From an uncultured Candidatus Saccharibacteria bacterium (GTDB lineage: Bacteria > Patescibacteriota > Minisyncoccia > Phycocordibacterales > UBA5272): 44,979 nt of DNA. Under the pieces are notes generated by a model. It had not been told where the DNA came from. It did not search any database and saw only the letters and a program-made list of their open reading frames with translations. Position 1 is the first letter of the stretch, and each line of letters starts with the position of its first letter. The stretch lies in the NCBI GenBank assembly GCA_964510805.1, contig CAZEDG010000005.1:1-44979 (forward strand), given 5' to 3'. A program made the translations under genes and the position numbers. Shown piece by piece: positions 3,458 through 36,904 of the stretch.

Positions 3458-4579
3458 TTAGAATGGATTCTTTGCACCACGCACTTCGAAGTGAAGATGA
3501 GGGCCTGTTGATCTTCCTGTGTTACCAACTTCACCAATCTGCTCACCTTGTGAGACGCTTTGACCTGATGACACATATACTGCACGAAGGTGTGCATAAA
3601 CAGTCTGCACTCCATTATCATGAGTGATAATTACCATGTTTCCGTATCCTCCATTGTATCCTCCTGTTTTTGCAACAATCACCTTTCCTGTTGCAGAAGC
3701 TAGTACAGGAGTTCCTGGTGTTGCACCAATATCGATACCATTATGACCATGAATTCCTTGCGTCTTGCGACCACCAATAACAGGACGAGTAAAGAATCCG
3801 CTTGGTGTTGTGTAACTATAAAAATCAAGAATCTTAGACTTCTTAGTCTTAGAAGCAAGGGTTTTCTTCTTAGGAGTTTCTGTTACTGCAATTTCACCAT
3901 CTGGCACAATTACCACATCACCAGAAGCAAGCTTAGATTCTTCGGTGAGCCCGTTATAACTAGCTATATCATCCTTGTCTGCTCCATACTTACGAGCAAT
4001 GGATGCGAGGGTATCGCCTTGTTTTACGGTGTGCTTAATTCCTGTGATAGGGAGGATAATGAGTGTATCTCCTTTTGTGATTGTTCTAGAAGAAAGATTG
4101 TTTGCCCACATAATAGTATTCACAGAAACACCAAAAAGCTTTGCAACATCTTGTATTGTGTCGCCCTTTTTTACTTCATACACACTAATTGTGTCGGTGG
4201 TAGGGAAGTCGACATCTTCGGTTGAGACACGGAGAGATCCAGACACCGCCTGAAGTGCTTCTTGGTTAAGGTCAACCTCATTATCTGTTGTGGTGCCGTC
4301 AACAATTGTTGGCTTGAAGATCGACATAGTCTGAGAAGTAAGAGGGGCCGGTTCTTCTTGTGCTTCTGCTTCTTCTATAAAAAGAGTCTTGAATTTATTG
4401 GCAAAAGTAGAAAAAACTGACGCATGAGCATACACAGGAAATGTGACGCTAAGTGCACAAGCAATGAGAAGAAACGTATGTGACGTAATCTGGTTACGTT
4501 TTTTTTGAGCTACTATAATAGTTGTTATAGATGAAGGTAAAGATAAAAATGTATCTTTAGAGACAATAATTGTATTCAA
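3458..4579 (-). CDS. LysM-LysM-M23 metallopeptidase (peptidoglycan hydrolase/activator family); start uncertain (TTG)
   Basis: Two LysM repeats (YEVKKGDTIQDVAKLFGVS, HTVKQGDTLASIARKYG). M23 motifs HNGIDIG, YAHL and HLHFE. Signal-like segment ending VYAHA. Confidence 0.92.
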   Translation of the reverse strand: MNTIIVSKDTFLSLPSSITTIIVAQKKRNQITSHTFLLIACALSVTFPVYAHASVFSTFANKFKTLFIEEAEAQEEPAPLTSQTMSIFKPTIVDGTTTDNEVDLNQEALQAVSGSLRVSTEDVDFPTTDTISVYEVKKGDTIQDVAKLFGVSVNTIMWANNLSSRTITKGDTLIILPITGIKHTVKQGDTLASIARKYGADKDDIASYNGLTEESKLASGDVVIVPDGEIAVTETPKKKTLASKTKKSKILDFYSYTTPSGFFTRPVIGGRKTQGIHGHNGIDIGATPGTPVLASATGKVIVAKTGGYNGGYGNMVIITHDNGVQTVYAHLRAVYVSSGQSVSQGEQIGEVGNTGRSTGPHLHFEVRGAKNPF

Positions 4580-12854: not shown

Positions 12855-12901
12855 GAGAATTCTCCTCAAAATGGTTGATTTCAAAACAGCAATCAGATAC
12901 A

Positions 12902-12945
12902 ATTATATCATGAAATTTGATAAAAGTCAATCCATGTGCTACAAT
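12902..12945. promoter_or_regulatory. Overlapping divergent sigma70 promoters
   Basis: Minus strand: TTGACT(12930-25)-17-TATAAT(12907-02). Plus strand: TTGATA(12917-22)-17-TACAAT(12940-45) with a TGn extension. Confidence 0.7.
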
Positions 12946-19009: not shown

Positions 19010-19215
19010 AAGGACTAGATGTTAGCTACGAGACTTTAGAGGTTAGAGATACAAGAGCGACACCTTCGGTGTCGCTCTTGTATTCTTGTATCTCGTCTGT
19101 AGTCTATTTATCTGTGTTCTGTTGTCTCATTTTGCCTTCTGCCTCGCTCTTGTATTCTGTGTTATCTGTATTTTCTAAAGTCTAACATCTAATATCTAGT
19201 GCCATTAACTATCTG
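19010..19215. repeat. Intergenic mosaic element, copy A5 (palindrome 19049-19083)
   Basis: ATACAAGAGCGACACC-TTC-GGTGTCGCTCTTGTAT. Starts ACTAGATGTTAG and ends CTAACATCTAATATCTAGT. Shares a 57-bp block with copy A6. Confidence 0.9.
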
Positions 19216-19255
19216 TTTACCCTCTACTCTCTGTATTTTATGGTACACTATTAGC

Positions 19256-21997
19256 ATGAAAAAGCTTGGAAGTATTCTTGCTGTAGTGTTTCTTTTTGCT
19301 TGTTTTTTTGGTGCTACAACATCTTATGTAGAGGCACAAAATGCTCCAGTTGTTGCAAACATAAGCATGTTATCTGAAACATCTTCAAAAATATTCACAC
19401 AAGTATTAAACCAACTTAACCCAGGCTCTAGCCAAATAGATAAAAATCTTTACGATCTTATAAAAGGAGCACAAAATCAATACGATAAAAGTATACAGAA
19501 TGACAAAAATACAGGTGGTGGAATGGCAATGAAATCCGCTAAAGATGTCTATATCAAGGCTTTAAATTCATCAGTTGATTATATAAATAGTAATAAAAAT
19601 GATTCAAAGTTCCAAGATCAAAAATCTATTAGTGTTATTACAAATCTATTAAACTTACTTAATGGAGAAATAAATAACCAAGGTTTGGTTCAAAACTTTT
19701 CAAAACCAACAGATGAAGCAAGTAAGGCAACAGAAAGCGCAAAACAAGCTGCTGCGAAAAAAGCAGAAGACACAAAAGAACAATGTTCTATAAACTTTCT
19801 TTCTTCAGACGGAGTTAATATCGGTGCTTGTGTTACTGCTGTATTCAACTGGTTCATCAAAAGCATTCTCCTTAACATTGCCGGTGTTCTCCTCTGGCTT
19901 TCAGCTACCATATTTAACAAAGCTGTTATTCTTGGAATTCTTGATTTCAGTCGATGGGCACCGGAATCTCTTTATCCTATCTGGATAGTGATACGACAAA
20001 TCGTCTCTCTTCTACTTGTATTCGTTGGTCTCTATCTCGGCTTCTTATACATCCTAGGAAGAGAAGATAAGTTTGAGAAGTATATCCCTTGGGTGGTTAT
20101 CTTCGGGCTCTTTGTTAACTTCTCCTATCCGCTCGCACGCACCGCAATTGATGTTTCTAATATTGTCACCCTTAAGGTCTACACTTCTGCTTTTGGGTCA
20201 AATGTCCTCGATGAGAACAGTGTCCAGTCAGAAACAAGTCCAGGAAGTAGCATTATGAGAAGTCTTGGATTAAGTGGCTTGGTTACAGCTGCGGTTAATA
20301 AAAAAGATGGAGCAAAAGGAGAAACAGGGTTCTCTGAGAACCTAGATATTCCTGGATCACTTCTTACCGTTGTATATGTTCTGTACTCAGCATATGTCCT
20401 TTTTAGATTTGCACTTCTTGTAATTGTAAGAACGGTGGTGTTCGTGTTTATGATTATTGCTTCACCTCTTCTTCTTGTAGATAGTGTTCTCCCTGTACTT
20501 GGAGATAAAGCAAAAGATTTACGTAAAGTGTTCCTGGAGCAACTCGCGGTTGGGCCAGTATTTATGATTCTCTTTGTGATCACACTTAGATTCCTAGAAG
20601 TCTTCAAGGTTACAAACATTCCAAAAACAAATGCTGATTTTATCGCTTCTTCTTTTACTATTATCTTAATGCTTGCAATGCTTCAAATCACTCTTAAAGT
20701 TACGACCAAGATTGCAGGAGAAGCTGGTGCATGGGGAACAGAAAAGCTCGGCAAGATCGGAGGCTTCGGCCTTGGTGTTGCAACAGGAGGGACAGGGTTA
20801 CTTGCAAGACAGACAATAGGAAGAGGGGCGACAATGCTACGAGACAGTAAATGGGTAGAAAGAAACCAAGATTCATTCTTAGGAAGAAGAGCCTACGACC
20901 TTTCTAACTCTGTAGCAAAAAGCTCTTTTGATCTTCGTAATTCCAAAATTGTAGCCCGTGGTGCAGGTATGGCAGGGCTCGATAAAGGACTCTTCGGTAC
21001 AGGGATGGGTACTGGTAAGTCGACAAACTACGAACAAGGACTTAAAGAGCGCCTAGACAAGAAAAAAGTAATAGCAGGTAGAATAAAAACAAAATACGAA
21101 AGAGACGTCTACAAAACAAATGAAAAAGGAGAGGTTCAATATGACCCTAACACCGGTCTACCTATTGTAGAACACAAAGCTGGAGAAACTGTTGAAGATG
21201 CTGTTAACACAAGAATGAGATATCTTCAAGGTGACGCTTCTCGTTTTATGACCAAGGAAGAAAAAGAAAAACTTGCAGACCAAGAACTTGACGCCTCTGT
21301 AAAAGCAAATGAGGCTCTTTACAAAGAAAAGAAAAAGAAGGGGGGAGGCGCTGATAAAAAATTCGTTTCTGAGCTCGAAACGAGACTACAAGAACTTAAA
21401 AAGAGCGACAAAGATCTTAAAAGTATCGAGGCTCGTACTGTTGTCAAAACACTTGAATCTATCAAAAAAGATAGTGATAACTTTGATAAGCGTGTAACGG
21501 CTTCTTTTGAACAATATGGAACGTACGCTGATGCAAAAGATCGTAAAAAGTTTATTGATTCTAAAGTCCTTGGATCAGAAGATGAGGACTTCAAAAAAGA
21601 TGTGCTTGCAAAAATATATGAATCAACAAAAGCAAATAAGCAGGAACAAGAAGCTTTTCTTAACTCACTCCCTCAAGAAGTTAGAACTTCTTTGTCTGGA
21701 TCATCAGCTTCTGTTCCTGAAGCCCCTGAAGTGACAACCACAATCTCTTCAAACCCTTATGGATCAAAAACAGTAATACCTTCTTCGTCTATTAACACAA
21801 GTGAACTTGATAAAGCAGGCTTCGAGGGACAAGTAAAAGAAGTTGTTGTACAACCTGTAGAAGAAAAACCTCTCACTTTTGCAGAAAAAAGAAAATTAGC
21901 TATGGACAAAGCTCGTGCAAGTATGGGAGAAAACGTTGGTAGCGGATCTTCTACTTCTTCAAATCAAGCGCCCGCACCTGTAAATGCATCAGCCTAA
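19256..21997 (+). CDS. TrbL/VirB6-like polytopic membrane protein with long soluble extensions
   Basis: Signal peptide, about eight TM helices (e.g. WVVIFGLFVNFSYPLARTAIDVSN, MIIASPLLLV), a Gly-rich post-TM stretch and a charged C-tail. ATG 19256 lies 6 nt after TGGTACACT. Confidence 0.75.
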   Translation: MKKLGSILAVVFLFACFFGATTSYVEAQNAPVVANISMLSETSSKIFTQVLNQLNPGSSQIDKNLYDLIKGAQNQYDKSIQNDKNTGGGMAMKSAKDVYIKALNSSVDYINSNKNDSKFQDQKSISVITNLLNLLNGEINNQGLVQNFSKPTDEASKATESAKQAAAKKAEDTKEQCSINFLSSDGVNIGACVTAVFNWFIKSILLNIAGVLLWLSATIFNKAVILGILDFSRWAPESLYPIWIVIRQIVSLLLVFVGLYLGFLYILGREDKFEKYIPWVVIFGLFVNFSYPLARTAIDVSNIVTLKVYTSAFGSNVLDENSVQSETSPGSSIMRSLGLSGLVTAAVNKKDGAKGETGFSENLDIPGSLLTVVYVLYSAYVLFRFALLVIVRTVVFVFMIIASPLLLVDSVLPVLGDKAKDLRKVFLEQLAVGPVFMILFVITLRFLEVFKVTNIPKTNADFIASSFTIILMLAMLQITLKVTTKIAGEAGAWGTEKLGKIGGFGLGVATGGTGLLARQTIGRGATMLRDSKWVERNQDSFLGRRAYDLSNSVAKSSFDLRNSKIVARGAGMAGLDKGLFGTGMGTGKSTNYEQGLKERLDKKKVIAGRIKTKYERDVYKTNEKGEVQYDPNTGLPIVEHKAGETVEDAVNTRMRYLQGDASRFMTKEEKEKLADQELDASVKANEALYKEKKKKGGGADKKFVSELETRLQELKKSDKDLKSIEARTVVKTLESIKKDSDNFDKRVTASFEQYGTYADAKDRKKFIDSKVLGSEDEDFKKDVLAKIYESTKANKQEQEAFLNSLPQEVRTSLSGSSASVPEAPEVTTTISSNPYGSKTVIPSSSINTSELDKAGFEGQVKEVVVQPVEEKPLTFAEKRKLAMDKARASMGENVGSGSSTSSNQAPAPVNASA

Positions 21998-22765: not shown

Positions 22766-23005
22766 AAACAATGACCGTCATTGCATGGGCCCGCAATGAC
22801 GGTCATTGTTTCTAGACAACAGACCACTTCGCTACAGACAGTAAGACAACAGACTAATACAAAAGCGACACCGAAGGTGTCGCTTTTGTGTTCTTGTATC
22901 TCGTCTGTAGTCTATTTATCTGTATTCTGTTGTCTCATTTTGCCTTCGATGTCGCTTCTGTGTGCCGGTATCCACTATTAACTATTAACCATTAACTACT
23001 AACCT
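22763..23005. repeat. Composite element: type-B hairpin (22763-22814) + copy A6 (22859-22889) + 57-bp block + TTAACYA heptamers
   Basis: 22-bp perfect stem around ATGGGCCC. ACAAAAGCGACACC-GAA-GGTGTCGCTTTTGT. 22891-22947 matches 19083-19139 at 56/57. Confidence 0.9.
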
Positions 23006-23024: not shown

Positions 23025-23459
23025 ATGCAATTTCGTGTCCCACAATTTATTGATGTAGAAGACAAAGTAATTGGCCCTTTTACCCTCAAACAATTCGGAT
23101 ATATCGTTGGAGCAGGGGGATTTTCTTTTCTCATTTGGACTTTTATACCGATTAAGTTCATTGCGGTACTTTTTATTATCCCTGTTGCTTCACTCTTTCT
23201 TTCGCTTGCTTTTCTTAAAATCAACAATAGACCTTTTGGAGATATTCTCGAAAGCGCCTTCAGTTACTATACAGGAAACAAAATTTATACATGGAAACAA
23301 CCAGAACAAAAAGCGACAGAGACTTCTGTTGATCAAGTTGTTGCCAACACCCAAAAAGAAATTATTATCGAAAAAACAAACCGTGACCGTATCCACGATA
23401 TTTCTCTTGGGCTTGATGTCTTCGATGCTAACTCACAGAAAGAAGATGACTCTAACTAA
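23025..23459 (+). CDS. PrgI-family (VirB3-like) membrane protein
   Basis: MQFRVPQFIDVEDKVIGPFTLKQFGY followed by two TM helices and KINNRPF. Confidence 0.85.
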   Translation: MQFRVPQFIDVEDKVIGPFTLKQFGYIVGAGGFSFLIWTFIPIKFIAVLFIIPVASLFLSLAFLKINNRPFGDILESAFSYYTGNKIYTWKQPEQKATETSVDQVVANTQKEIIIEKTNRDRIHDISLGLDVFDANSQKEDDSN

Positions 23460-23484: not shown

Positions 23485-24129
23485 ATGGCAACCCAAGGAC
23501 AAGCAACCCAAGCATTCGTTCCAATAGATCGTGTAAGAGATGGTATCGTTATCCTAAAAACAGGTGAACTACGAGCTATTCTTATCACGAACTCTCTTAA
23601 CTTAGGACTTAAGAGTGAGGACGAACAGCAGGCAATTCTTTCACAATTCCAAAACTTTCTTAACTCTCTTGATTTTCCTGTGCAATTCTTCATCGAGTCT
23701 CGCAAGCTTAACATCAAGCCATATATAGATCTTCTTCAAAAACGAAGCGGGGAAGTAAAAGAAGACCTTCTCAAGATTCAGATTCATGAATACATGGGCT
23801 TTATCACCAAGTTCACCGAAGAAAACAACATCATGTCTAAGCATTTCTTCATCAGTATTCCGTATTTTAACCAAAGCACAACCCAAGTAGCTCCTCCTAC
23901 ACTTCTTTCTCTTGCTGGGGTTAATAATCCAAGCAATTCATCATTTGATGCGTCATTTGAAGCGGCGCGCATCCAGTTAGAGCAACGAACCTTAACAGTA
24001 CTACAAGGACTCTCAAGGTTCGGTCTCCGTGCACAGAGACTTGGTACAGAAGAGGTGGTAGAACTTTTTTATAAAATCTTCAACCCAAGTGAAGAAGACC
24101 GTGAAGCTCCTAAGGTAGGAACACAATAA
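23485..24129 (+). CDS. VirB4-associated protein (resembles the N-terminal non-catalytic part of conjugative ATPases)
   Basis: VPIDRVRDGIVILK...SLNLGLKSEDEQQAIL...FLNSLDFPVQ. Lies between PrgI and VirB4. Confidence 0.65.
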   Translation: MATQGQATQAFVPIDRVRDGIVILKTGELRAILITNSLNLGLKSEDEQQAILSQFQNFLNSLDFPVQFFIESRKLNIKPYIDLLQKRSGEVKEDLLKIQIHEYMGFITKFTEENNIMSKHFFISIPYFNQSTTQVAPPTLLSLAGVNNPSNSSFDASFEAARIQLEQRTLTVLQGLSRFGLRAQRLGTEEVVELFYKIFNPSEEDREAPKVGTQ

Positions 24130-24140
24130 CACTAACTAGT

Positions 24141-25967
24141 ATGGGATTATTCGACTTTTTAAACAAAAAACAAGACAAACCTCTCTCTTCACCTGTTACT
24201 CCGGTGCTTCCAGAGCAGGTGTATAAAGTTGCGGAGATGCAACTTAAGGATATTATTGCGCCAAGTGCTCTTGAAATTAAACCAAAAGAACTTGATCTTG
24301 GTACGGTTATTGTTCGTTCTTATTTCGTTACTTCATATCCTCGTTATCTTAACGATAATTGGCTAAGTCCTCTTATCAATCTCGACAAAATATTTGATAT
24401 CTCTATTCATGTTGTTCCTCTTAACACAGGAGAGGTGATGAAGGGATTCCAAAGAAAAGTTGCCGAAGTGCAAAGCCAGATTATGACACGAGAAGAGAAG
24501 GGGCTTGTGCGAGATCCTTCTCTTGATGTTGCGTACCAAGACCTCGAAGATCTTCGTGACGGACTCACCCAAGCACAAGAGAGAATGTTCGAAGTATCAC
24601 TCTATATCACACTCTATGGCAAGACCAACGAAGAGATAGATAAGGTTGAAAATGAGATCAAGAACATCCTTGAGAGTAAACTTATCTACGTGAAGCCTTC
24701 ACTTTTCCAACAAGACGCAGGATTCCTCTCCACAATTCCGGTAGGGCAAGATATTATGCAGATCAAGAATAAGATTAACACCTCACCGTTGTCTTCATTC
24801 TTCCCATTTGTTTCATTTGATCTTTCTTCTGATAAAGGTATTCTCTACGGACTCAATCGTCACAATGGAAGCCTTATCCTTTTCGATCGTTTTTCTCTTG
24901 AAAACTACAACTCTATTGTCTTTGCTAAGTCAGGTTCTGGAAAAAGTTATTTCACCAAGCTTGAAATCTTGCGCACACTCATGTTCGATACTGAGGTGAT
25001 TATTATTGACCCTGAACGAGAATATGAGTTCTTGGCTGAATCTGTTGGAGGAAGATATTTCGATATTTCTCTTGTTGGAGAACATCATATTAACCCTTTT
25101 GACCTTCCTCAACCAACCAAAGATGAATCTCCTTCTGAAGTGCTTCGTAGTAACATTGTTAACCTTGTAGGACTTTTCCGTGTCATGCTTGGAGGTCTTA
25201 GCCCAGAAGAAGATGCGATTATCGACCAGGCAATTACTGAAACGTACGCACTCAAGGACATCACCGGAGATTCTGATTTTACTGAACTTGAGCCACCTCT
25301 TCTTTCTGATTTTGAGACGGTACTTTCTGGTATCGAAGGATCAGACAGTCTTCTCCAAAGAGTTCAGAAGTATACACAAGGCACGTGGTCTGGTTTTCTT
25401 AACCAACCATCCAATGTTGATATCAACAAGAAGCTTGTCTGTTTCTCTATTCGTGACATGGAAGATGAGCTTAAGCCTGTTGCGATGTATCTTATTACTC
25501 ATCACATTTGGAACGCTGTTCGTAAGAATCTTCGCAAGAGACTTCTTGTTGTTGATGAAGCATGGATTATGATGAAGAATGACGATACTGCGTCATTCCT
25601 CTTTGGACTCGCGAAGCGTGGTCGTAAGTACTATCTTGGTCTTGCAACCATCACTCAAGATGTGGGCGACTTCCTTAAGTCACCATATGGACTTCCTATT
25701 ATTACCAACTCATCAATCCAGATTCTCCTTAAGCAATCACCTTCTTCTATCGACCTAATCCAAAAGACATTCAATCTTACTAACGAAGAAAAATTCTTAC
25801 TTCTTGAATCTGGTGTAGGTGAGGGGATATTCTTTGCTGGACTCAAGCATGTAGCAATTAAAGTTGTTGCTTCATATACCGAAGATCAGATTATCACCAG
25901 TGATCCATCACAACTTCTTAAGATTCAACAAATGAAAGAAGAAGTGGCGGATTCAAAAAACGTATGA
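24141..25967 (+). CDS. virB4: VirB4-family secretion ATPase
   Basis: Walker A AKSGSGKS, IIIDPEREY, HINPFD, Walker B LLVVDEAW, GRKYYLGLATITQDVGDF, GEGIF. Confidence 0.9.
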   Translation: MGLFDFLNKKQDKPLSSPVTPVLPEQVYKVAEMQLKDIIAPSALEIKPKELDLGTVIVRSYFVTSYPRYLNDNWLSPLINLDKIFDISIHVVPLNTGEVMKGFQRKVAEVQSQIMTREEKGLVRDPSLDVAYQDLEDLRDGLTQAQERMFEVSLYITLYGKTNEEIDKVENEIKNILESKLIYVKPSLFQQDAGFLSTIPVGQDIMQIKNKINTSPLSSFFPFVSFDLSSDKGILYGLNRHNGSLILFDRFSLENYNSIVFAKSGSGKSYFTKLEILRTLMFDTEVIIIDPEREYEFLAESVGGRYFDISLVGEHHINPFDLPQPTKDESPSEVLRSNIVNLVGLFRVMLGGLSPEEDAIIDQAITETYALKDITGDSDFTELEPPLLSDFETVLSGIEGSDSLLQRVQKYTQGTWSGFLNQPSNVDINKKLVCFSIRDMEDELKPVAMYLITHHIWNAVRKNLRKRLLVVDEAWIMMKNDDTASFLFGLAKRGRKYYLGLATITQDVGDFLKSPYGLPIITNSSIQILLKQSPSSIDLIQKTFNLTNEEKFLLLESGVGEGIFFAGLKHVAIKVVASYTEDQIITSDPSQLLKIQQMKEEVADSKNV

Positions 25968-26935
25968 CACGCTTCCTAAAACTAGTAACCTTTACTCTTT
26001 CGATATATCTAAGTACTTGTGTCTTTAGTTTTGCTGAGATTAGCGCTTCGGTTAAGTTGATGCCAGCTAATCCAGAACCAAAAAGTAAAGTCACCTTAAC
26101 TCTTGTAAGTTACTCGTTTAACCCAGATACTGCTTTTGTTTCATGGAAAGTAAACGGTCGAGACTTTGCTTCTGGTCTTGGAAAAAAAGATATTACCATC
26201 CAAACAGGTGATATCGGTGCAACCACTCAAGTCTCTGTTCATGCAGAAACAGCGGACGGATCTTCTATTGATCAAGTTATTAGCATCACTCCTTCTTCTG
26301 TAGTGTTACTCTATGAAGCTCCAAAAAGCTATGTCCCTCTTCTGTATGAAGGTAGATCTCTTCCAAGTGATGGAGCTCTTGTACGCGTAACCGCACTTCC
26401 TCAGCTAAGCGATAACGGCACACCTGTTCCTCCTGGGAACCTTTCGTATACTTGGTATCTTAATGATACTGTAGTAAAAAGTGTCTCTGGTGCAGGCAAG
26501 CAATCTGCACTCATTCGTCTTGATTACTTAAGAACAAGTAATGAGATTAGGGTCGTTGTTCGCAGTCCACTCGGAAACACTGCTGATGAAAAAATAACTA
26601 TCTACACTCACTCAATACTACCAATTCTCTATCTCTCTGATCCTCTTTTTGGTACTAATGTTACTACACGTATCGGTAAGAGATTCGAAACTACTCGAGA
26701 TTTTAGAATTGTTCTTGAGCCTTTTTATATTTCTTACAACGACCCAAAAGAAGCAACCTATTCTTGGTTTATTAATGGACTTCCATCAACCCCTCTTGAT
26801 GGAAGAACTCTTGATCTTCATCCAAAAGAAAATGATTATGGTATTAAAAAACTTTCCATAAAGCTCTACGGTGCGGACAAACGTCTACAGACAAGTGAAG
26901 TAGAGACCGAAATTGTTTTTGACACAAGAAAATAG
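25964..26935 (+). CDS. Exported beta-rich (Ig-like) protein
   Basis: Signal peptide (FSFA/E) and repeated YTWYLN/VSWKVN/YSWFIN strands. ATGA overlap with virB4. Confidence 0.7.
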   Translation: MTRFLKLVTFTLSIYLSTCVFSFAEISASVKLMPANPEPKSKVTLTLVSYSFNPDTAFVSWKVNGRDFASGLGKKDITIQTGDIGATTQVSVHAETADGSSIDQVISITPSSVVLLYEAPKSYVPLLYEGRSLPSDGALVRVTALPQLSDNGTPVPPGNLSYTWYLNDTVVKSVSGAGKQSALIRLDYLRTSNEIRVVVRSPLGNTADEKITIYTHSILPILYLSDPLFGTNVTTRIGKRFETTRDFRIVLEPFYISYNDPKEATYSWFINGLPSTPLDGRTLDLHPKENDYGIKKLSIKLYGADKRLQTSEVETEIVFDTRK

Positions 26936-26972: not shown

Positions 26973-27824
26973 ATGGCAACTTCTACCACCCCACTTTCTT
27001 ATATACCTCTTGAAGGAAAATCTTTAAATGCTCTTGGTGTCGAAGCTCCCACATTCGACGGCCAAGCCTCCTTACTTGCAACCTCTACTTTTGTCTATAC
27101 GTTATTCTTTATAGCTATTGTTATGGCTGCGTTTTATAGGTATGTCCATGCTGGAACATTACGTATTCAAGCTTCAGAGAGTGGTATACGACAATCTAAT
27201 GAGATTATACGTAAAGTAACACTTGGTCTTATTGGTGTCTTTATGTTGTTTATTCTTTTGTTTACAGTGAATAGGAATTTAGTGACAGGGGATGTGGGGT
27301 TCGGGGGGTTGAGTGGAACAAGTACGAGAATAGCAACGGGAGCACAAGGAAATCAACCGCAACAATCACAACCGTCACCTGCCCAAAGCGGAAGTAAGAA
27401 CTACCAAGAGAGACTTAAGAGTCATAATCAAACAGTCTCTAGACTTAGCCCTTCAGGGATTACAACAAATCATAACAATGCACCATGTACTGAGGACCAA
27501 TTCAATCAAAAATATCCAACTTGTACCAGTCTTGCATTTATGAGAGAAGAAAGTATACAGACGATTTTTAGAGTTAGTGGTGATTGTCATTGTAAACTTA
27601 TTATTACCAGTGGAACAGAACCAGGTCATGATAGTCACGGGGAGAACCTTCGCCCTTTTGATCTTCAAAAAAACGCTGAGCTTGATACTTTTTTGAAAGG
27701 AGTAAGTGGTTCAGTTACATCAAATAAGGATTGTGATGCTGTTTATAGATATAATGGTTTTAGTTTTTGTGACGAAAAGAGGAGACCTAATCCAACTTGG
27801 GCTCCACACTATCATGTGTACTAG
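26973..27824 (+). CDS. VirB2-type pilin module fused to a Zn-peptidase-like (M15/LAS, Hedgehog/DD-peptidase fold) cargo
   Basis: Two hydrophobic helices separated by a QASESGIRQSNEIIRK loop, then an S/Q linker. Cargo ITSGTEPGHDSHGENLRPFD...HYHV has six Cys. Confidence 0.7.
   Translation: MATSTTPLSYIPLEGKSLNALGVEAPTFDGQASLLATSTFVYTLFFIAIVMAAFYRYVHAGTLRIQASESGIRQSNEIIRKVTLGLIGVFMLFILLFTVNRNLVTGDVGFGGLSGTSTRIATGAQGNQPQQSQPSPAQSGSKNYQERLKSHNQTVSRLSPSGITTNHNNAPCTEDQFNQKYPTCTSLAFMREESIQTIFRVSGDCHCKLIITSGTEPGHDSHGENLRPFDLQKNAELDTFLKGVSGSVTSNKDCDAVYRYNGFSFCDEKRRPNPTWAPHYHVY
27048..27316 (+). repeat. 269-bp direct repeat copy 1 (pilin module)
   Basis: Matches 29239-29507 with 5 mismatches, 4 of them synonymous. 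Confidence 0.97.
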
Positions 27825-27875
27825 TGGTGTATTACCTACACACATTTATATTAGGTTCTTGCTATACTAAGCTCC

Positions 27876-29174
27876 ATGGACAATACCACCCGTAAACGTC
27901 TGGCAATCGCAGTACTTGTTGTACTCTTTTTTGTTGTCATTATTTTGGTGTGGTACTTTTTTTATGCGAAACCTACTGAAAGCCCTATAACAAAAAAAGG
28001 TGGCCCTTATTTTGGTCAACAAGGAAGACGTCCTGGGGACACCTTCATCCTCTCCCATGCAACATCTTCTTCTGTTACCTTCGTAAGTGATCCGCTTAAG
28101 GATCCTCTTGTTCAAATTTGGGACAAACCAGCAACAGGGGAAACCTATGTTGTACAAAATATCATGAAAGATGTCATGGAAAAGATTGATAATGGTTCTT
28201 CGACAGTAGAAGTAAAGAAAAGCGTCAAAGCAACCTCTACTATCGTTATGTTTGTTGACAGAGAAACAGGGTATATTTATGGGTACCCAATAGAGACTGG
28301 TAAGATTTTCCAGATTAGTAATACCCTTATTCCAGGAATCCATGACGCGTACATCTTTGGTGACGGCACACGTGTTCTTATGCGTTACATCGACCAACAA
28401 AAAAATACTGTTGTTGGTGTTATAGCTACCATTCCTCATGTTCCACAGATAGAGACACCTCTTCCTCTTACTCATATTGAGTATCTCAATTCAAAAGTAG
28501 TTTCTGTTGCAATAAGCCAAGATAAAGAAGAAGTCTCTTATGTAGTAGCAACTGATAATGGTTCTTCTATTTATACTCTTGATAAGGAGCGAGACCCTGT
28601 TCTTGTTGCTTCTTCTCCTTTTAAGGAATGGGACTTAAGTTACGGCGGAAAATCTCTCTACGTGACCACAAAACCTTCTGCATACATCGAAGGTATGACA
28701 TTCAGTCTTCCTCTTTTCCAGTCAGAAATAGTAAAGAAAACAGGTCTTATGACACTTCCTGATGAATCTGGAAATCTTTTTGCAAGTATGTGGGGTAAAC
28801 AAGGTTTGGTAACATTTTTGTATAACAATGGAGCTACTAAAGTGTTTTCTGTACAAACACTTACCAAGAAGTGCGCTTATGGAAGTGAATCACTTCTTGT
28901 CTGTGGTGTTCCACGTACAATCCCTAGAGGAAGTGAAGGTCTTCCTGATGATTGGTTCCAAGGAGCTATTACTTTCCAAGACGACCTCTCAGTAATTAAT
29001 AAGAATGAAGGGATTGCATACCCTCTCTATTCTTTTGATAGTACCAAGGAAGGGGACTTCGATGTATATGGGATTGCTGTTTCAGAAAAAAATGATTTGT
29101 ACACTTTTCTAAGAAGACAAGATGAGACTTTATGGCTTCTTAACACAAACCTGATTGTAGAAGAGCATGACTAG
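27876..29174 (+). CDS. Membrane-anchored beta-rich (propeller-like) protein
   Basis: N-terminal TM helix, short beta-strand repeats and a KCAY...LVCGVP Cys pair. TGCTATACT 7 nt upstream. Confidence 0.7.
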   Translation: MDNTTRKRLAIAVLVVLFFVVIILVWYFFYAKPTESPITKKGGPYFGQQGRRPGDTFILSHATSSSVTFVSDPLKDPLVQIWDKPATGETYVVQNIMKDVMEKIDNGSSTVEVKKSVKATSTIVMFVDRETGYIYGYPIETGKIFQISNTLIPGIHDAYIFGDGTRVLMRYIDQQKNTVVGVIATIPHVPQIETPLPLTHIEYLNSKVVSVAISQDKEEVSYVVATDNGSSIYTLDKERDPVLVASSPFKEWDLSYGGKSLYVTTKPSAYIEGMTFSLPLFQSEIVKKTGLMTLPDESGNLFASMWGKQGLVTFLYNNGATKVFSVQTLTKKCAYGSESLLVCGVPRTIPRGSEGLPDDWFQGAITFQDDLSVINKNEGIAYPLYSFDSTKEGDFDVYGIAVSEKNDLYTFLRRQDETLWLLNTNLIVEEHD

Positions 29175-30159
29175 TACCAGCCAAATTACCTATAAAGCGC
29201 TCGAAGGAGATTCTCTTAATGCGGTTGGGGTAAAGATGCCCACATTCGACGGCCAAGCCTCCTTACTTGCAACATCTACTTTTGTCTATACGTTATTCTT
29301 CATTGCTATTGTTATGGCTGCGTTTTATAGGTATGTCTATGCTGGAACATTACGTATTCAAGCTTCAGAGAGTGGTATACGACAATCTAATGAGATTATA
29401 CGTAAAGTAACACTTGGTCTTATTGGTGTCTTTATGTTGTTTATTCTTTTGTTTACAGTGAATAGGAATTTAGTGACAGGGGATGTGGGGTTTGGGGGGT
29501 TGAGTGGTAGCGGTGGTAGTAATGGATCAAAAATATCTACAACACAAACAGCATCCTCTCAAGGAACATCCAATACGCAAGGAAAAACTTGTGAATCTCC
29601 AGGTGCTGTTATTTCAAGAATGAGCTCACAGAATGGTGTCTGTGGTAATACTTCATGTACAAAGTTATCTGGATGTAATTACAAACAATACGAATCTGTA
29701 ATCGCAACCTACACAGGAAATGATACACGACTTAAGAAGATGGCTATTGTAGTACTTTGTATAGAATCAGGAGGTAATCAAAGGGCTTCCAATAATAATC
29801 CTGATGGAACGTATGACTGTGGTCTCATGCAAATTAACCAAAAAGCACCTTGTACAGACTCTTCTTTTAACATTGAATACAATATTCAAAAAGGAGTTGA
29901 TAAGCTACGATATGCTTTATCAAAAAGTTCTCAAGTGTATCCAGGAGTTCCTGTAGAAGCTACAGTATTTTCTTCTTATAATTGTTGCTCTAATGGCACA
30001 ATACCAGGTAGTCCAAGTAATGATTGCACACCGCAAGCAGGGTTCCCTTCTACACTTCCTAAATGGGCATGTCCTATTAATCCAGGTGAAGGGAAATATA
30101 ATATGTGTTCAGTAAAATCCTATGCCTGTGAAGCTTCTGCTTGTTTTAATCAACTCTAG
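29167..30159 (+). CDS. VirB2-type pilin module fused to a Cys-rich lytic transglycosylase (SLT/VirB1-like) cargo
   Basis: Same pilin module as 26973. Cargo motifs CIESGG, YDCGLMQIN and SSYN, with 14 Cys. Confidence 0.82.
   Translation: MTSTSQITYKALEGDSLNAVGVKMPTFDGQASLLATSTFVYTLFFIAIVMAAFYRYVYAGTLRIQASESGIRQSNEIIRKVTLGLIGVFMLFILLFTVNRNLVTGDVGFGGLSGSGGSNGSKISTTQTASSQGTSNTQGKTCESPGAVISRMSSQNGVCGNTSCTKLSGCNYKQYESVIATYTGNDTRLKKMAIVVLCIESGGNQRASNNNPDGTYDCGLMQINQKAPCTDSSFNIEYNIQKGVDKLRYALSKSSQVYPGVPVEATVFSSYNCCSNGTIPGSPSNDCTPQAGFPSTLPKWACPINPGEGKYNMCSVKSYACEASACFNQL
29239..29507 (+). repeat. 269-bp direct repeat copy 2 (pilin module)
   Basis: Offset 2191 bp from copy 1. Identity ends abruptly after GGGGGGTTGAGTGG. 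Confidence 0.97.
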
Positions 30160-30878
30160 AGAGGTTTAAGGTGCGCTAACTTATTCTTAACATAAATATC
30201 AAGTACATAACTCACCGAACTACTTACAAGCCAGTAAAGAGATAAAGCAGAAGGAAGCACACTTCCAGATATTGCAACAATAATTGGAATAACATACGTT
30301 ACCTGAATTTTCATCGACTTCATAAAATGATCTTGGAAAGAATCTCCCCCTTTTGAATGATCACTAGAACCCATATATTCTGTTTGTCTTCTTGCAAGTA
30401 AAAATGAAGCAAAGCCAGCAAGCACAGCAATAACAAGATTCTTTTGTGTTACATCAAAAAGACCGAATGCTTTTGTGTGCAACGTTTCTGGAAAAGTAAT
30501 AAAAGAATACAAAGAGTTAGGGTCAGTGTGTAACCCTTTAGAAAAGACGAAATAGAGCGCAAAGAATACAGGAATCTGAAGTATCATTGCAAAAAGCCCA
30601 GACAATGGATTAATCTTTTCACTTCTATAGAGTTCAATCATTTTTTTAGAAGCCTCTTGCGGATCTTTCTTTTGTAACTCTTTTATTTTGTTTAGTTCTG
30701 GCTCAATTTTCTTCATCAAGTACTGTGTACGAAGTGCAGAGACGTTAAAAGGAAGAAGAAGTAACTTTACAATAAGCGTCACAATAATAATTGTCGCTCC
30801 GATATCATGAAGAGGGACAACGGTAAGAGTAAAAGCAATAAGATTGTAAACTGGTTCGTAAAATAAAGTATGGAACAT
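30156..30878 (-). CDS. yidC: Membrane protein insertase YidC/Oxa1
   Basis: IIVTLIVKLLLLP, KIEPELNKIKE, LYRSEKINPLSG, QIPVFFALY, LSLYWLVSS. Canonical position after rnpA. Confidence 0.95.
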   Translation of the reverse strand: MFHTLFYEPVYNLIAFTLTVVPLHDIGATIIIVTLIVKLLLLPFNVSALRTQYLMKKIEPELNKIKELQKKDPQEASKKMIELYRSEKINPLSGLFAMILQIPVFFALYFVFSKGLHTDPNSLYSFITFPETLHTKAFGLFDVTQKNLVIAVLAGFASFLLARRQTEYMGSSDHSKGGDSFQDHFMKSMKIQVTYVIPIIVAISGSVLPSALSLYWLVSSSVSYVLDIYVKNKLAHLKPL

Positions 30879-30880
30879 AA

Positions 30881-31198
30881 TTATCTAAGTGTAGCAAATG
30901 CTTTTTGTAATTCTAAACTAAACTGTGAGTAGGGGGTAGTGAGTGCTTTTTGTTTTGGATAAATCACACAAGAATACGTTGGTGGAATACTAACTGTCTG
31001 TAAAAAAGTATACACTTTTCTTTTTACATAATTTCTATCAACTGCTTTTTTAATTGTTTTTTTGGAAATAACACAAGCGTATTTTTGGTTCGGTAAAGCT
31101 TCTGTATAAGCGATATCGAATAATTCATGACGAAAAAAGACCCGAGGACGTAATCCTTCGAAGTCTTTTTTTGAAAATCGCTTCGTTACAGGAAGCAT
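30881..31198 (-). CDS. rnpA: Ribonuclease P protein component
   Basis: MLPVTKRFSKKDF, VISKKTIKKAVDRNYVKR (RNR-like motif). Synteny with rpmH and yidC. Confidence 0.92.
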   Translation of the reverse strand: MLPVTKRFSKKDFEGLRPRVFFRHELFDIAYTEALPNQKYACVISKKTIKKAVDRNYVKRKVYTFLQTVSIPPTYSCVIYPKQKALTTPYSQFSLELQKAFATLR

Positions 31199-33230: not shown

Positions 33231-34322
33231 ATGAAATTCGAATGCAAAGGTGATACATTTATAAAAGCGGTACAGCAAGTAGCAAAGGCTCGTAGTAAAG
33301 TGCAGTCTAAGAATGCCTTACAAGATATCCATCTTGAGATAACAAACCATCTTCTTACACTTCGTGCAACGAACTTAGAACTTTTTTGTGAAAAGAGTAT
33401 TTCAGTAAAAGGTGTTGTTAACGGAGCTTGTCTTATTCAAGGAGAAACACTGCTTCGTATCCTTGCGACATTTAGTTCCAAAGATATCACACTTAACTGT
33501 GAGTTAATTGAAGGAGTCTTTGCGATTACTACTGATAAAGGTACTATAGAAATCAAAACAACTCCATATGAGGATTTTCCAACACTACCACCACAAGGAG
33601 ATCAGATAGGGATGGTTAATAAGAATATAATAAGTACTCTCCTTAAAGAGGTTTCATTCTGTTCTGCAAAGAGTGATATAAAGCCAGAAATTGCCTCTGT
33701 ATACCTCTATACTAAAGATTCTTATATTTACTCCGTTGCAACTGATTCTTATCGTCTTGCCGAAAAATCTGTACGTAACGAGAATGATTTAGAGTTCTCA
33801 TTTCTTGTTCCAGAAAAACATATCCCAGAGATATTACAGATCATCGGTGAAGAGGAAGGTGATATTCTTCTTACTAAGAGTGAAAATATCGTTTCTCTTA
33901 CAGGGGAAACTTTTACGTTATCAATTCATACAATTACTGGATATTTTCCTGATTACAGACAACTTTTTCCAAAAGAATTTATTACACATATAACCCTTCA
34001 TAAAGATGATCTTCAGAAGGCGCTTACTTTAACCACGTTATTTAACGATCAGTATTCTCAAGTTGAATGTATTTTTGCTTCGGATAAGTGTACATTCCAT
34101 AGTCGTAGTGAAAAAGTTGGACAAGTAACTCACTCTATTGATATTACTAAAGAGGGTGATGATGTAGAAGCAAAATACAATAATAGATTCTTCCTTGAAG
34201 TACTTCCTTATATCGAAGGTAATGAAATTACTTGTAAGTTTTCTACTCCTAATAGACCTGTTTTTATTCAAGGAAAGAAAGATATTACGTTTACGTACCT
34301 CCTTATGCCTCTTAATAGGTAA
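33231..34322 (+). CDS. dnaN: DNA polymerase III beta sliding clamp
   Basis: LRATNLEL, EDFPTLP, VATDSYRLAE, GYFPDYRQLFP, YLLMPL. Follows dnaA. Confidence 0.96.
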   Translation: MKFECKGDTFIKAVQQVAKARSKVQSKNALQDIHLEITNHLLTLRATNLELFCEKSISVKGVVNGACLIQGETLLRILATFSSKDITLNCELIEGVFAITTDKGTIEIKTTPYEDFPTLPPQGDQIGMVNKNIISTLLKEVSFCSAKSDIKPEIASVYLYTKDSYIYSVATDSYRLAEKSVRNENDLEFSFLVPEKHIPEILQIIGEEEGDILLTKSENIVSLTGETFTLSIHTITGYFPDYRQLFPKEFITHITLHKDDLQKALTLTTLFNDQYSQVECIFASDKCTFHSRSEKVGQVTHSIDITKEGDDVEAKYNNRFFLEVLPYIEGNEITCKFSTPNRPVFIQGKKDITFTYLLMPLNR

Positions 34323-34714: not shown

Positions 34715-36904
34715 CTACTGTACCGTTGTTGTTGCTATCTCAACAGGAGGTTTTTCTTGTGGAATTGTATTTTGGGTGTTTTGTTGAGAAGCACAAGCGA
34801 GAGGGTGATTGATAAGCCATTTCTGTATCGCGGTTTCCCAGAGGGTATATTGAGAGTCTCCTTGAGGATAATTTGGATAAGGGCCACTTGGATCACTTTT
34901 AATCACATAATTAAGAATAGTATGAATACCATCCTCTGCACAGTATGATCCTCGTAAAACAGGCTTAGAAGAGGTGTTAGGGGTTAAGTCAGGGAAATAC
35001 TCAACTTGAGTGTTTTGCAGTGCTCTATCCATAGCTTTTCGCCATACAGGGGCAAGGACGAACCCTGCAGTTCTCTTATCAATAGGAGTGTTGTCGTTAT
35101 TTCCTGCCCACATACCAATTACTAAAGATGGTGTATAACCAACAACCCAGACATCTTTATAATCATTAGTGGTTCCTGTTTTTACAGCAACAGGACGGTC
35201 TTTAAAATAAAGTGCAGAGTTAGCTCCATAACTAGGAGTTCTTGCTACGTTATCAGAAAGAACACTGGATATCTGAGAAGTAACTTCTTCCCCGAGTACT
35301 TCGGTTTCTGCAGGAGTAAACTTTTGAAGAACACTATCATCTCTGTCACGAACTTCGAGAATACCCTGAGGTTTATGATAAATACCATTATCCGCAAAGA
35401 CTCCATATGCATTAGTAAGTTCAAGTAAAGTGATTTCACCTCCACCAAGTACAAGAGAAAGTCCATATCTATTAGGATCGTTAATTGTCGAAAGTCCCAT
35501 AGCTTGCGCCAAATTTACAGCGTTTTGTATTCCTGTAAGATACAGCAATTTTACTGCAGGAATGTTAAGAGATTGAGCAAGAGCTTCACGTAGAGTAACA
35601 GGGCCACGGAATAATCCGTCATAATTATCAGGAATATAACAAGAGTCAGAATCAATCCCTTGTCTTATAGGATTACCGTCTGCATCACAAAGACTACTGA
35701 ACTGTGTTTGTACATCGAAGAGTACTGTTTCTGGTGTGTAACCGAGTTTAAATGCAGATGCATAGACAATAGGTTTAAAAGAAGATCCTGGTTGTCGAAG
35801 TGCTGTTGCAATATTATATTGACCAGGAATTTCTTTATCAAAAAAATCTCTTGACCCTACCATTGCAAGGATTTGTCCTGTTTTTGGATCTGATGCTACA
35901 AGAGCTGAGTTAGATGCTTTAAACTTTTTCATATTCTCAAAAGCACCATCTTTTACAATCTGCTCAAGATCTTTTTGGAGATCGTAATCAATTGTGGTGA
36001 CAACTTTTAACCCTCCGTTCTGAACCATATCAACACCGTATTTATCTTCAAGGTATTCACGAATATACATCACAAAATGAAGTGCTTTTCCGCTGTTAGA
36101 AGCATCTCTTTCGAAAGAAACAGTTTCTTTTTGAGATGTTTCTTTTTGATCTTTTGTGATGTAACCAAGTTCATACATTCTTTCAAGAACAAGATTTTTT
36201 CTTTTTTCAAGAGCGTCTCTATGTTTTCCGTAAGGGGAATAGTAGGTTGGAGCTTGAGGAAGTGCTGCGAGGTATGCAGATTCGGTAAGACTTACTTCTT
36301 TTGCATGTTTATTGAAATAGGTAAGTGAAGCTTCTTCTACTCCATAAATAGTTCCACCGTATGGACTTTCGTTAAGATAAATTTGAAGTATTGTTTTCTT
36401 TGGAAGTTCTCTATCTAGTTTTAGAGAGAGAATTATTTCTTTTATTTTACGAGAAATAGTTTTTTCTTGAGTAAGGAGAGCATTCTTAACAACTTGTTGA
36501 TTAATAGTAGATCCTCCTTGAACATATCCACCAGAGGTGATATTTGCTAGCATTGCTCGTATAAAAGAGGTTGGTCTAAAACCGTGATGTTCATAAAAAT
36601 GAGCATCTTCTATAGAAATAGTCGCTTCTTGAATATAAGGACTTATAGAGTCTATAGGAACTGCAGTTCTTCGTACGTTATCATGAATATTATAGAGCAC
36701 TACTTTTCCTGTCCTGTCATAGATTTTTGTTGAGTTGGCAACATTTCTATTCTCAAAATTATTAAAATCAGGAAGTTGTATAGTAGAAATCCATGTAATA
36801 ATAAGCGCTGAAGCTATTACAAAAAGCGAAAAAAGGACCAAAAAAATCTCTCGAACAATTCGATGTTTTATTTTTTTCTTCTTATGTGCATAGTAATCTG
36901 ACAT
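34715..36904 (-). CDS. Class A penicillin-binding protein (transglycosylase-transpeptidase)
   Basis: GT51 motifs EDAHFYEHHG, GGSTINQQVVKN, RKIKE. Transpeptidase motifs GSSFKP, SLN, KTGT. Confidence 0.96.
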   Translation of the reverse strand: MSDYYAHKKKKIKHRIVREIFLVLFSLFVIASALIITWISTIQLPDFNNFENRNVANSTKIYDRTGKVVLYNIHDNVRRTAVPIDSISPYIQEATISIEDAHFYEHHGFRPTSFIRAMLANITSGGYVQGGSTINQQVVKNALLTQEKTISRKIKEIILSLKLDRELPKKTILQIYLNESPYGGTIYGVEEASLTYFNKHAKEVSLTESAYLAALPQAPTYYSPYGKHRDALEKRKNLVLERMYELGYITKDQKETSQKETVSFERDASNSGKALHFVMYIREYLEDKYGVDMVQNGGLKVVTTIDYDLQKDLEQIVKDGAFENMKKFKASNSALVASDPKTGQILAMVGSRDFFDKEIPGQYNIATALRQPGSSFKPIVYASAFKLGYTPETVLFDVQTQFSSLCDADGNPIRQGIDSDSCYIPDNYDGLFRGPVTLREALAQSLNIPAVKLLYLTGIQNAVNLAQAMGLSTINDPNRYGLSLVLGGGEITLLELTNAYGVFADNGIYHKPQGILEVRDRDDSVLQKFTPAETEVLGEEVTSQISSVLSDNVARTPSYGANSALYFKDRPVAVKTGTTNDYKDVWVVGYTPSLVIGMWAGNNDNTPIDKRTAGFVLAPVWRKAMDRALQNTQVEYFPDLTPNTSSKPVLRGSYCAEDGIHTILNYVIKSDPSGPYPNYPQGDSQYTLWETAIQKWLINHPLACASQQNTQNTIPQEKPPVEIATTTVQ

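Follow-up and report, generated by a model that had tools for sequence, protein, structure and literature searches.

Two fusion genes with a shared N-terminal module

The window analyzed here, the whole 44,979-nucleotide stretch of contig CAZEDG010000005.1 from an uncultured Candidatus Saccharibacteria bacterium, is a segment of a Patescibacterial (candidate phyla radiation, CPR) chromosome around the replication origin. Beside yidC, rnpA, and dnaA lies a chromosomal, Gram-positive-type type IV secretion system (T4SS) operon, and the two genes that close it, which we call gene A and gene B, are the subject of this report. Both open reading frames (ORFs) are intact, gene A encoding 283 residues with 6 Cys and gene B 330 residues with 14 Cys. 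A repeat search of the window finds a direct repeat with 91% identity in the two genes (26979-27278 and 29170-29469), and in exact register (offset -3) a block of 269 nt differs at only 5 positions, namely gene A nt 111, 138, 141, 175, and 330. Four of these mismatches are synonymous third-position changes, one converts H59 to Y, and the block contains a run of 154 nt with perfect identity. On its 5′ side, the first ∼25 codons of the two genes are only ∼60% identical; on its 3′ side, the genes split into Ser/Gly/Gln/Thr-rich linkers and then into unrelated C-terminal domains. A tblastn search found no third copy in the window. The original prediction for this DNA had described this block, with its five mismatches, as one carrier placed in front of two different cargos behind Ser/Gln/Gly linkers; upon realignment, its description of the block is accurate to the base, and the ORFs and the alignment bear out the two-gene architecture.

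Is such a repeat real, or is it the artefact of a collapsed or chimeric assembly? Contigs of metagenome-assembled genomes (MAGs) do frequently break at the repeat, although a break inside the block in many other assemblies is what a real repeat is expected to cause. For example, the contigs of L019, L021, L023, L024, L028, L029/L030, and L040 start or end in the B gene at residues ∼50-100, i.e. in the module, and the 53-kb contig CAZNZQ010000005.1 has a B-gene fragment at each of its ends. A sibling contig, L062 (JGI 3300045345 contig, 2270-3083), is chimeric exactly after the repeat: it is 99.5% identical to window 27247-29515 and then continues into unrelated GC-rich DNA, with the switch a few bases past the gene B copy (window 29507), which looks like a chimeric join at or next to the repeat. 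The 122-residue protein P0073, one of just three proteins retrieved by a word-indexed search with the module alignment and considered as a free pilin, was rejected as a spurious product of this chimeric contig. Against an artefact at the locus itself, the two copies in the window differ from each other and run into different intact ORFs, and the two-gene arrangement is present, with lineage-specific modules, in 22 independently assembled genomes. These assemblies exclude the failure that the original prediction had itself foreseen, and we give it next to no weight. The practical consequence is that short-read assemblies of such genomes are systematically fragmented by the repeat at this locus.

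The shared module is predicted to be a helical hairpin. In AlphaFold2 models built from alignments of orthologues, the helices span residues 34-65 and 69-99 of protein A and 33-64 and 68-98 of protein B, with a predicted local distance difference test (pLDDT) score of ∼90; the hairpin is followed by a disordered linker (pLDDT <50; residues 113-140 in A and 105-138 in B) and then by a confident globular domain, and the gene A model as a whole scores 83. The loop connecting the helices, RYVHAGTLRIQASESGIRQSNEIIRK, contains four Arg and one Lys, and the N-terminal tail is net negative, so that by the positive-inside rule both termini, and hence the Cys-rich enzymes, should lie outside the cytoplasmic membrane. 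An extracytoplasmic location would also fit the even numbers of conserved Cys in the two cargos. No signal peptide is found in either protein: the ORFs start 6-9 residues before a YxxLE motif with no hydrophobic leader, and neither gene has an upstream in-frame start. The distant fused relatives L048 and L049 do carry a leader.

What kind of hairpin is this? Alignment by HHalign of a 44-sequence module alignment with six standalone pilins of the PF18895 family gave a probability of 87% (E 4.1e-6, 71 columns), with the first transmembrane segment (TM1), the turn (ASE with AGD), and the second segment (TM2) paired in register. Against the PF18895 cutoff of 26.6 bits, fused relatives score 26.9 and 26.5 (the two L049 fusions), 23.2 (P0058), and 17.8 (P0066), standalone small proteins encoded beside related SLT genes in other CPR lineages score 37-47 bits, and one tandem pilin also passes PF04956 (TrbC/VirB2). 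Distant homology of the module to the T4SS_pilin/VirB2 family is solid at the profile level, and the VirB2-like carrier first proposed for these genes is upheld by the HHalign match, by the threshold-level fused intermediates, and by the modeled hairpin. Within the module, positions Y10, L13, E14, and G106 are conserved, N100 is invariant, and a motif at the module end, TVN(K/R)xL(V/L)xGDVGLxxL, is highly conserved. Conservation at such polar positions suggests specific protein contacts as opposed to a passive, generic anchor.

The cargo of gene B is well supported as a GH23 lysozyme/lytic-transglycosylase fold. None of the residues E200-S201, G219-L-M-Q222, and Y271-N272 varies among 17 B-type sequences, and a profile of these orthologues matches g-type lysozyme (3gxk, E 1.4e-9) best in the PDB, followed by MltC, MltE, and the type III secretion transglycosylase EtgA, with E200 aligned to the catalytic-site ES of 3gxk. 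The top 50 Foldseek matches to the predicted structure are all MltE, g- or c-type lysozyme, MltF, or Slt (probability 0.9-1.0, E 0.011-0.16), the probability reaching 1.0 for MltE, g-lysozyme, and MltF. Orthologues also pass the SLT family (PF01464, cutoff 21.3 bits), scoring 47.2 (P0053), 59.8 (L048), and 84.6 bits (P0045). In other words, the ES, GLMQ, and YN motifs that had led to the proposal of a transglycosylase held up, together with the fold.

The cargo of gene A is probably a LAS/M15-type Zn-peptidase, although this assignment is weakly supported. The residues H222-x7-D230, E268, and H279-x-H281 are invariant in 35 A-type sequences; in a 24-sequence alignment of the cargo, H78, D86, and H135 are invariant, and E124 and H137 (window E268 and H281) are conserved in at least 90%. 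The element GGTE-x-GH is near-invariant, and the A-type cargo of L049 has a textbook SSHYAGNAIDI motif. We take the order H..D..E..H(xH) to be that of the LAS enzymes, i.e. the M15 peptidases, VanX/VanY, and the Hedgehog N-domain. No match to the window cargo was found in Pfam, NCBIfam, or PHROG, and two divergent relatives reach only sub-threshold scores for Peptidase_M15_3 (15.2 and 14.9 bits, cutoff 23.2), with HH_signal at 12.5 bits. Foldseek returned only the VanY-like LdcB (4mph/4jid; E 1-2.4, probability 0.08-0.15), a profile search of the PDB and a Foldseek search of BFVD gave no relevant match, and a profile search of 5.8 billion proteins retrieved no named family, only further fusions. 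For the Zn-peptidase originally proposed, then, the motif order stands as invariant, and a significant match to a family or fold does not accompany it.

Indirect support for a peptidase comes from two directions. At the position of gene A, the genomes L015, L018, and L037 have another cargo, with a Cys...His signature and weak matches to NlpC/P60 (E 0.0095) and to an endolysin PHROG; it is a candidate NlpC/P60-like cysteine peptidase, weakly supported, that would, if the assignment holds, be a non-homologous replacement of the metallopeptidase-like cargo by another class of wall peptidase. Additionally, a Saccharibacterial T4SS cluster pairs an M15B-like peptidase with a lysozyme.

Distribution, gene conversion, and cargo exchange

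How widespread are such fusions, and is the module ever found by itself? With the module alone as query, HMMER was run exhaustively against 1.84 billion representatives (E<1e-3) and yielded 57 clusters, nearly all of them 262-335 residues long with the module N-terminal at residues ∼4-112; the short members resemble contig-end fragments. The module is nearly always fused, and essentially never occurs without a wall-hydrolase cargo. Four small proteins (P0059, P0063, P0067, and P0071; 112-137 residues) show a permuted or tandem arrangement in which a TM2-type segment is followed by a short linker, a YxPLE tail, and TM1, and these may be tandem cargo-free modules or repeat-collapse artefacts on short contigs. 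A pattern scan of 185,579 species genomes, which used the B-type alignment, found 53 loci in MAGs labeled Paceibacterota, Nomurabacteria, Parcubacteria, Moraniibacteriota, 'Saccharibacteria', and, in a few cases, Bdellovibrionales; two weak matches come from the MAG of a Woesearchaeota archaeon. Among the closest loci, many bear the label 'Saccharibacteria', and their gene content looks Paceibacteria-like. The MAGs labeled 'uncultured Bdellovibrionales' (L046, L049-L052, and L057) have CPR-type pilin/T4SS clusters; their labels may reflect mislabeling or bin contamination, with horizontal transfer as the alternative.

Both fusions are complete in 22 genomes, spaced 2.17-3.17 kb apart. The first fusion (the gene A position) is A-type in 19 of the 22 and of the cysteine-peptidase type in the other 3, and the second (the gene B position) carries SLT in all 22. 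A catalogue of the cargos behind the carrier in relatives, as originally recommended, contains three classes in all, each a housekeeping-type wall hydrolase. More distant loci are organized differently. In L046 and L050-L057, an SLT domain fused to a canonical pilin module with a signal peptide heads an array of cargo-free and tandem pilins; Moraniibacteriota-type examples of such pilin-SLT and PF18895 arrays are found at L054 9800-13026 and L057 8657-13140, and loci of this type also hold tandem double-pilin proteins with a Cys-rich N-terminal domain. L048 and L049 have adjacent SLT and A-type fusions with leaders and near-identical modules, and both fusions of L049 have Cys-rich N-terminal domains in front of the pilin module. 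The pilin-hydrolase fusion is widespread in the CPR, and the clade of the window is its extreme form, lacking both a leader and any free pilin within ±10 kb.

The history of the module is not that of the cargos. Across the 22 genomes, comparison of the module DNAs gives 79-99% identity (median 94%) for the two paralogues of one genome, against a maximum of 71% (median 55%) for the best match elsewhere, and in 22 of 22 cases the nearest relative of a module is its own paralogue. For comparison, identity in the published CPR pilin arrays averages 25% and peaks at 54% (PMC12102498). The homogenized tract is 188-400 nt long, without a single mismatch in 12 of the 22 genomes; in most genomes its 5′ boundary lies 15-130 nt from the gene start (extremes -30 and 214), its 3′ boundary is no more than ∼60-75 nt from where the module stops, and on both sides identity is at background. 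At the extreme N-terminus, Y[KRQ]xLE marks 16 of the 22 B genes and is absent from all 22 A genes. The cargos and the extreme N-termini are orthologous from one genome to the next, whereas the module cores cluster by genome; such a pattern marks the two genes as ancient paralogues subject to recurrent gene conversion. A recent duplication is rejected on the same grounds. The original prediction had offered a carrier either recently duplicated or gene-converted; the former was mistaken, and the latter is now, with the 22/22 within-genome pairing and the tract boundaries, on firmer ground than the window alone could provide.

Such homogenization need not be functional. The hairpin could simply tether the hydrolases, like the N-terminal transmembrane segment of PrgK, TraG, or CwlT, and the identity of the modules could be a neutral by-product of recombination; direct repeats 2.2 kb apart favor conversion, and the hydrolases of monoderm T4SSs are membrane-anchored (PMC12857230). 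We find this explanation unlikely. A mere tether would leave unexplained why the polar motifs of the tail, the loop, and the C-terminal boundary are kept across lineages that are only ∼30% identical, why the module is homologous to pilins as opposed to a generic transmembrane pair, why it essentially always comes with a wall-hydrolase cargo, and why it has been homogenized in 22/22 lineages.

The cargos, for their part, can be exchanged. Genomes L060 and L001 are 94% identical across VirB4, the 323-residue gene, the module, and the linker, to codon 137 of the first fusion, at which point similarity is lost for the length of the cargo (459 nt versus 524 nt, the two being A-type subtypes ∼30% identical), and 93% identity resumes ∼60-80 nt past the stop codon of this fusion. 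This is a clean replacement of the cargo cassette behind a constant carrier, shown for one pair of relatives, and it bears out the prediction that cargo is exchangeable. We also weighed programmed switching of cargo between the direct repeats and rejected it, since recombination there could do no more than remove cargo A and the 432-residue gene, irreversibly. Could the exchange instead be the mark of an arms race, as in polymorphic toxins, with the hydrolases as T4SS-exported antibacterial or host-directed toxins and the pilin module as their export handle? A cargo cassette replaced behind a constant N-terminus would suit such effectors, and peptidoglycan hydrolases are common as interbacterial effectors. 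No adjacent immunity-like gene takes part in the swap, however, as the downstream 432-residue gene remains 93% identical and unswapped; only three cargo classes occur, all of them of the housekeeping type; and position and synteny are fixed. We therefore regard toxins as very unlikely.

The secretion locus and its surroundings

The features of the locus are collected in Table 1. The window contains a VirB4 of the CD1110/TcpF/PrgJ type, a VirB3 of the PrgI type, and a TrsD-like protein, which is the composition of an MPF_FATA system. VirB4 is encoded as two ORFs, a 214-residue TrsD/TraC-like N-terminal part and a 608-residue ATPase, and since the split is kept in L001 and L005, it is not a frameshift artefact. 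From PrgI through gene B, neighboring genes overlap or leave little space between them, suggesting a single operon. Gene A lies 1 kb, and gene B 3.2 kb, downstream of virB4 on that gene's strand, and this placement near virB4 is conserved in the 22 genomes. In L001 (GCA_020049755.1) and L005, the order is a 990-residue gene, a 246-residue gene, PrgI, the TraC-like part, VirB4, the 323-residue gene, the first fusion, the 432-residue gene, the second fusion, yidC, and rnpA, the same as in the window; the yidC/rnpA/dnaA origin context also occurs in L002, L003, and L005. Neither a coupling protein (VirD4) nor a relaxase was found among the scanned ORFs of the 45-kb window, in agreement with published Patescibacterial systems (PMC12102498).

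Table 1. Positions of the fusion genes, their parts, and neighboring features in the window
Feature	Position	Strand	Basis or remark
Gene A: hairpin module (aa 1-115), disordered linker (aa ∼116-143), candidate Zn-peptidase cargo of the LAS/M15 type (aa ∼144-283)	26973..27824	+	
Repeat copy 1, gene-conversion tract in gene A pilin module	27048..27316	+	gene A nt 76-344
Cargo A domain, 6 Cys	27402..27821	+	AlphaFold2 pLDDT >90
432-aa membrane-anchored protein between the fusions	27876..29174	+	ORF; last 8 nt shared with gene B
Gene B: hairpin module (aa 1-114), linker (aa ∼115-139), cargo with GH23 lysozyme/lytic-transglycosylase fold (aa ∼140-330)	29167..30159	+	
Repeat copy 2, gene-conversion tract in gene B pilin module	29239..29507	+	repeat comparison
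Cargo B domain with catalytic-type E200-S201	29584..30156	+	profile versus PDB, Foldseek
932-aa polytopic membrane protein, candidate VirB6/PrgH-like channel subunit	19199..21997	+	position and size kept in L001 (990 aa)
Hairpin with 17-bp stem ahead of the PrgI-to-gene-B block, likely a terminator or operon boundary	22856..22892	+	
PrgI (VirB3-like)	23025..23459	+	PF12666, 38.3 bits (cutoff 27)
TrsD/TraC-like N-terminal part of VirB4, separate ORF	23485..24129	+	NF045975 E 4e-11; NF041427 (TrsD) E 1.6e-6
VirB4-type ATPase, MPF_FATA (CD1110) family	24141..25967	+	NF045971, 369 bits (cutoff 325); PF19044
323-aa secreted protein, conserved cluster member	25964..26935	+	weak Ig-like signals
yidC and rnpA, directly after gene B	30156..31198	-	PF02096, ORFs
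dnaA	31445..32821	+	ORF
dnaN	33231..34322		
LysM and Peptidase_M23 protein	3458..4579	-	
1270-aa ORF	4720..8532	+	no Pfam match at all
Class A penicillin-binding protein (Transgly and Transpeptidase)	34715..36904	-	
PilB-type ATPase (type II secretion/type IV pilus)	40435..42141	-	

Among the neighbors, the 323-residue and 432-residue proteins have no informative family match. The 432-residue gene is present between the fusions in all related loci, and its product may be a partner or regulator of the hydrolases. The 932-residue protein, whose translation shows many hydrophobic segments, has no Pfam match and is probably VirB6-like, judging from its sequence features and place; several other unannotated secreted or membrane proteins are encoded upstream of the T4SS block. 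PADLOC found no match when run on the four genes from the 323-residue gene to gene B, which gives no indication of a defense system. A tRNA scan of the window was negative, and a promoter scan gave fewer hits than in shuffled sequence and is uninformative. The LysM/M23, penicillin-binding protein, and PilB genes indicate that the organism synthesizes peptidoglycan and possesses a type IV pilus system besides its T4SS. Other sizeable ORFs without a family match are found at 717-1652, 11676-12902, 15272-16177, 16344-17288, and 17297-19009.

From pilin module to a probable role in wall breaching

Taken together, we consider it probable that A and B are the VirB1-like wall hydrolases of a chromosomal, relaxase-less, MPF_FATA-like T4SS, and that they are delivered or concentrated by way of their pilin module. 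Each enzyme would hang by a disordered linker of ∼25-40 residues from the C-terminus of a VirB2/T4SS_pilin-like hairpin, being neither free nor on a simple transmembrane anchor. B would cut the glycan strand and A would probably cut the peptide stem or cross-link (LAS/M15-like), a task that a candidate NlpC/P60-like cysteine peptidase would take over in some genomes. If the module is a pilin, the T4SS should handle both enzymes through its pilin pathway, and this handling would concentrate glycan and peptide cutting where the apparatus crosses the wall. Recurrent gene conversion keeps the module near-identical in both genes, its tract ending at the module-linker boundary, and the constancy of the module doubles as a recombination handle for the exchange of downstream cargo cassettes, an exchange shown for one pair of relatives. 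The genetic context (VirB4, PrgI, the TrsD-like protein, and synteny) matches the published Patescibacterial T4SSs near dnaA and supports this explanation.

Several observations weigh against it. Gene B itself scores 19.9 bits for SLT, below the cutoff that its orthologues pass; genes A and B have no match to PF18895 at E<0.1; and with no significant sequence or fold match for cargo A, its enzymatic nature rests on motifs and context. Additionally, no cargo-free pilin is encoded within ±10 kb in the 22 genomes, leaving no evident partner for co-assembly, and the exact identity of the modules in 12 of them could be slightly inflated by short-read assemblers.

Within the wider idea of pilin-guided hydrolases, what would the module do? 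The original prediction pictured a drill: the fusions polymerise, and a filament or stub coated with glycan- and peptide-cutting enzymes bores through the wall of a host. In VirB2-type pili, as seen in F- and T-pilus structures, both termini of the pilin face outward, which makes a C-terminal cargo on a long linker geometrically possible. The module is homologous to VirB2-type pilins, identical modules suit a single polymer lattice, and in distant lineages the pilin-SLT fusion stands, in the manner of a minor pilin, at the head of an array of cargo-free pilins. Furthermore, epibiotic growth of the Saccharibacterium Southlakia epibionticum requires its T4SS and the six pilins of that system (Wang et al. 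2023, PMC10633639). Against these points, no filament has been observed; with no cargo-free pilin nearby in the clade, each subunit would bear a domain of 18-22 kDa, which is sterically demanding; canonical VirB1-like enzymes work on the producer's own wall; and neither a host nor a host wall as the substrate is indicated by any evidence. We consider the drill possible, and on balance doubtful. Equally tentative is a version in which the T4SS of this clade builds a pilus or short stalk wholly from enzyme-bearing pilins, a self-assembling filament coated with a muramidase and a peptidase that would digest its way through peptidoglycan, or in which both genes deliver the same cleaved pilin; in each variant, gene conversion would be selected because the two genes have to supply an identical module for polymerization. 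If true, this would be the first enzymatically active T4SS pilus, and its concerted evolution would be enforced by the polymer lattice.

A second way to use the module is as a pro-pilin. The VirB2-family pilin TrbC of RP4 loses C-terminal residues before it is cyclized, and by this precedent cleavage at the module end (N100..G106..L113) would free the same mature pilin from both proteins along with the two hydrolases, in fixed stoichiometry and at the assembly site. The boundary motif is highly conserved, with N100 invariant, and cleavage would account both for the absent nearby pilin gene and for a pressure toward identical modules. No protease candidate was identified in the cluster, however, and the boundary motif is equally readable as a docking or packing surface; we regard the pro-pilin as rather unlikely.

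How much of this is new? Patescibacterial T4SSs have been described as MPF_FATA-like, chromosomal, located near dnaA/rnpA, and usually without a relaxase (Quinonero-Coronel et al. 2025, PMC12102498), with VirB2-like pilins (PF04956, PF18895) near virB4 and, in Paceibacteria, VirB1 homologues associated with virB4. In the cluster of S. epibionticum, the multidomain, lysozyme-like SEML1_0006 and the M15B-like peptidase SEML1_0007 are both free proteins (PMC10633639). The window locus resembles these systems in its VirB4, TrsD-like protein, PrgI, and large polytopic protein, in its place beside dnaA/rnpA, in its VirB2-like (PF18895) modules, and in having peptidase and lysozyme genes downstream of virB4. 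It differs from them in that the published pilins are small, free, and arranged in arrays and the published hydrolases are free, whereas the only pilin modules found in this locus are fused to hydrolases.

Comparisons with better-known systems draw the same line. PrgK (pCF10), TraG (pIP501), CwlT (ICEBs1), and TcpG (pCW3) are likewise encoded in T4SS operons and membrane-tethered, and as a group they combine glycan cutting (SLT or muramidase) with peptide cutting (CHAP, NlpC/P60, or LytM), the pair of activities predicted at the window locus; but they are single multidomain proteins with a simple N-terminal transmembrane anchor, whereas A and B are two proteins with a pilin-type hairpin each. 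Monoderm T4SSs are otherwise without pilins (PMC12857230). With the VirB2, TrbC, and TraA pilins (PF04956, PF18895), the modules share a two-helix hairpin, a basic loop, a place next to VirB4, and profile-level homology. In contrast to those pilins, the A/B clade has no cleavable signal peptide, a conserved N-terminal tail of ∼35 residues (YxxLE), and an enzyme of 140-190 residues after the natural C-terminus, and the window proteins fall below the Pfam threshold. Like CdiA-CT, Rhs, and the Neisseria pilE/pilS system, the locus combines a constant N-terminus, a C-terminal cassette swapped by homologous recombination, and conversion in a pilin family. Unlike them, no immunity gene moves along with the cassette, no silent cassette store is seen, the cargos are three classes of wall hydrolase, and conversion homogenizes the constant part instead of diversifying a variable one.

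The fusion proteins are named only 'hypothetical protein' in databases, and in the literature searched we found no mention of pilin-hydrolase fusions, of two activities divided between two carriers, of their concerted evolution, or of cassette exchange. To call the whole system undescribed, as was first done, goes too far: earlier publications cover the T4SS near dnaA, its VirB2-like pilins, and the associated genes for a peptidase and a lysozyme (PMC12102498, PMC10633639), and the fusion was not found described. What is new is the combination, i.e. the covalent fusion of pilin and hydrolase, the division of the two activities between two carriers, the long-term concerted evolution of the carrier, and the exchange of cargo.

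Much of uncultivated bacterial diversity is Patescibacterial, and the one tractable species cannot live on its host cell without its T4SS (PMC10633639). A pilin module covalently joined to two predicted wall-cutting activities provides a concrete and testable tie between the handling of pilins and the breaching of the wall, and it brings with it an unannotated, Cys-rich candidate peptidase family, that of cargo A, which is almost confined to the pilin fusion. The concerted evolution in 22 of 22 genomes is a natural experiment, and it suggests that the modules must stay interchangeable; a need for interchangeable modules would steer the models toward a lattice, a docking site, or a mature product common to both genes.

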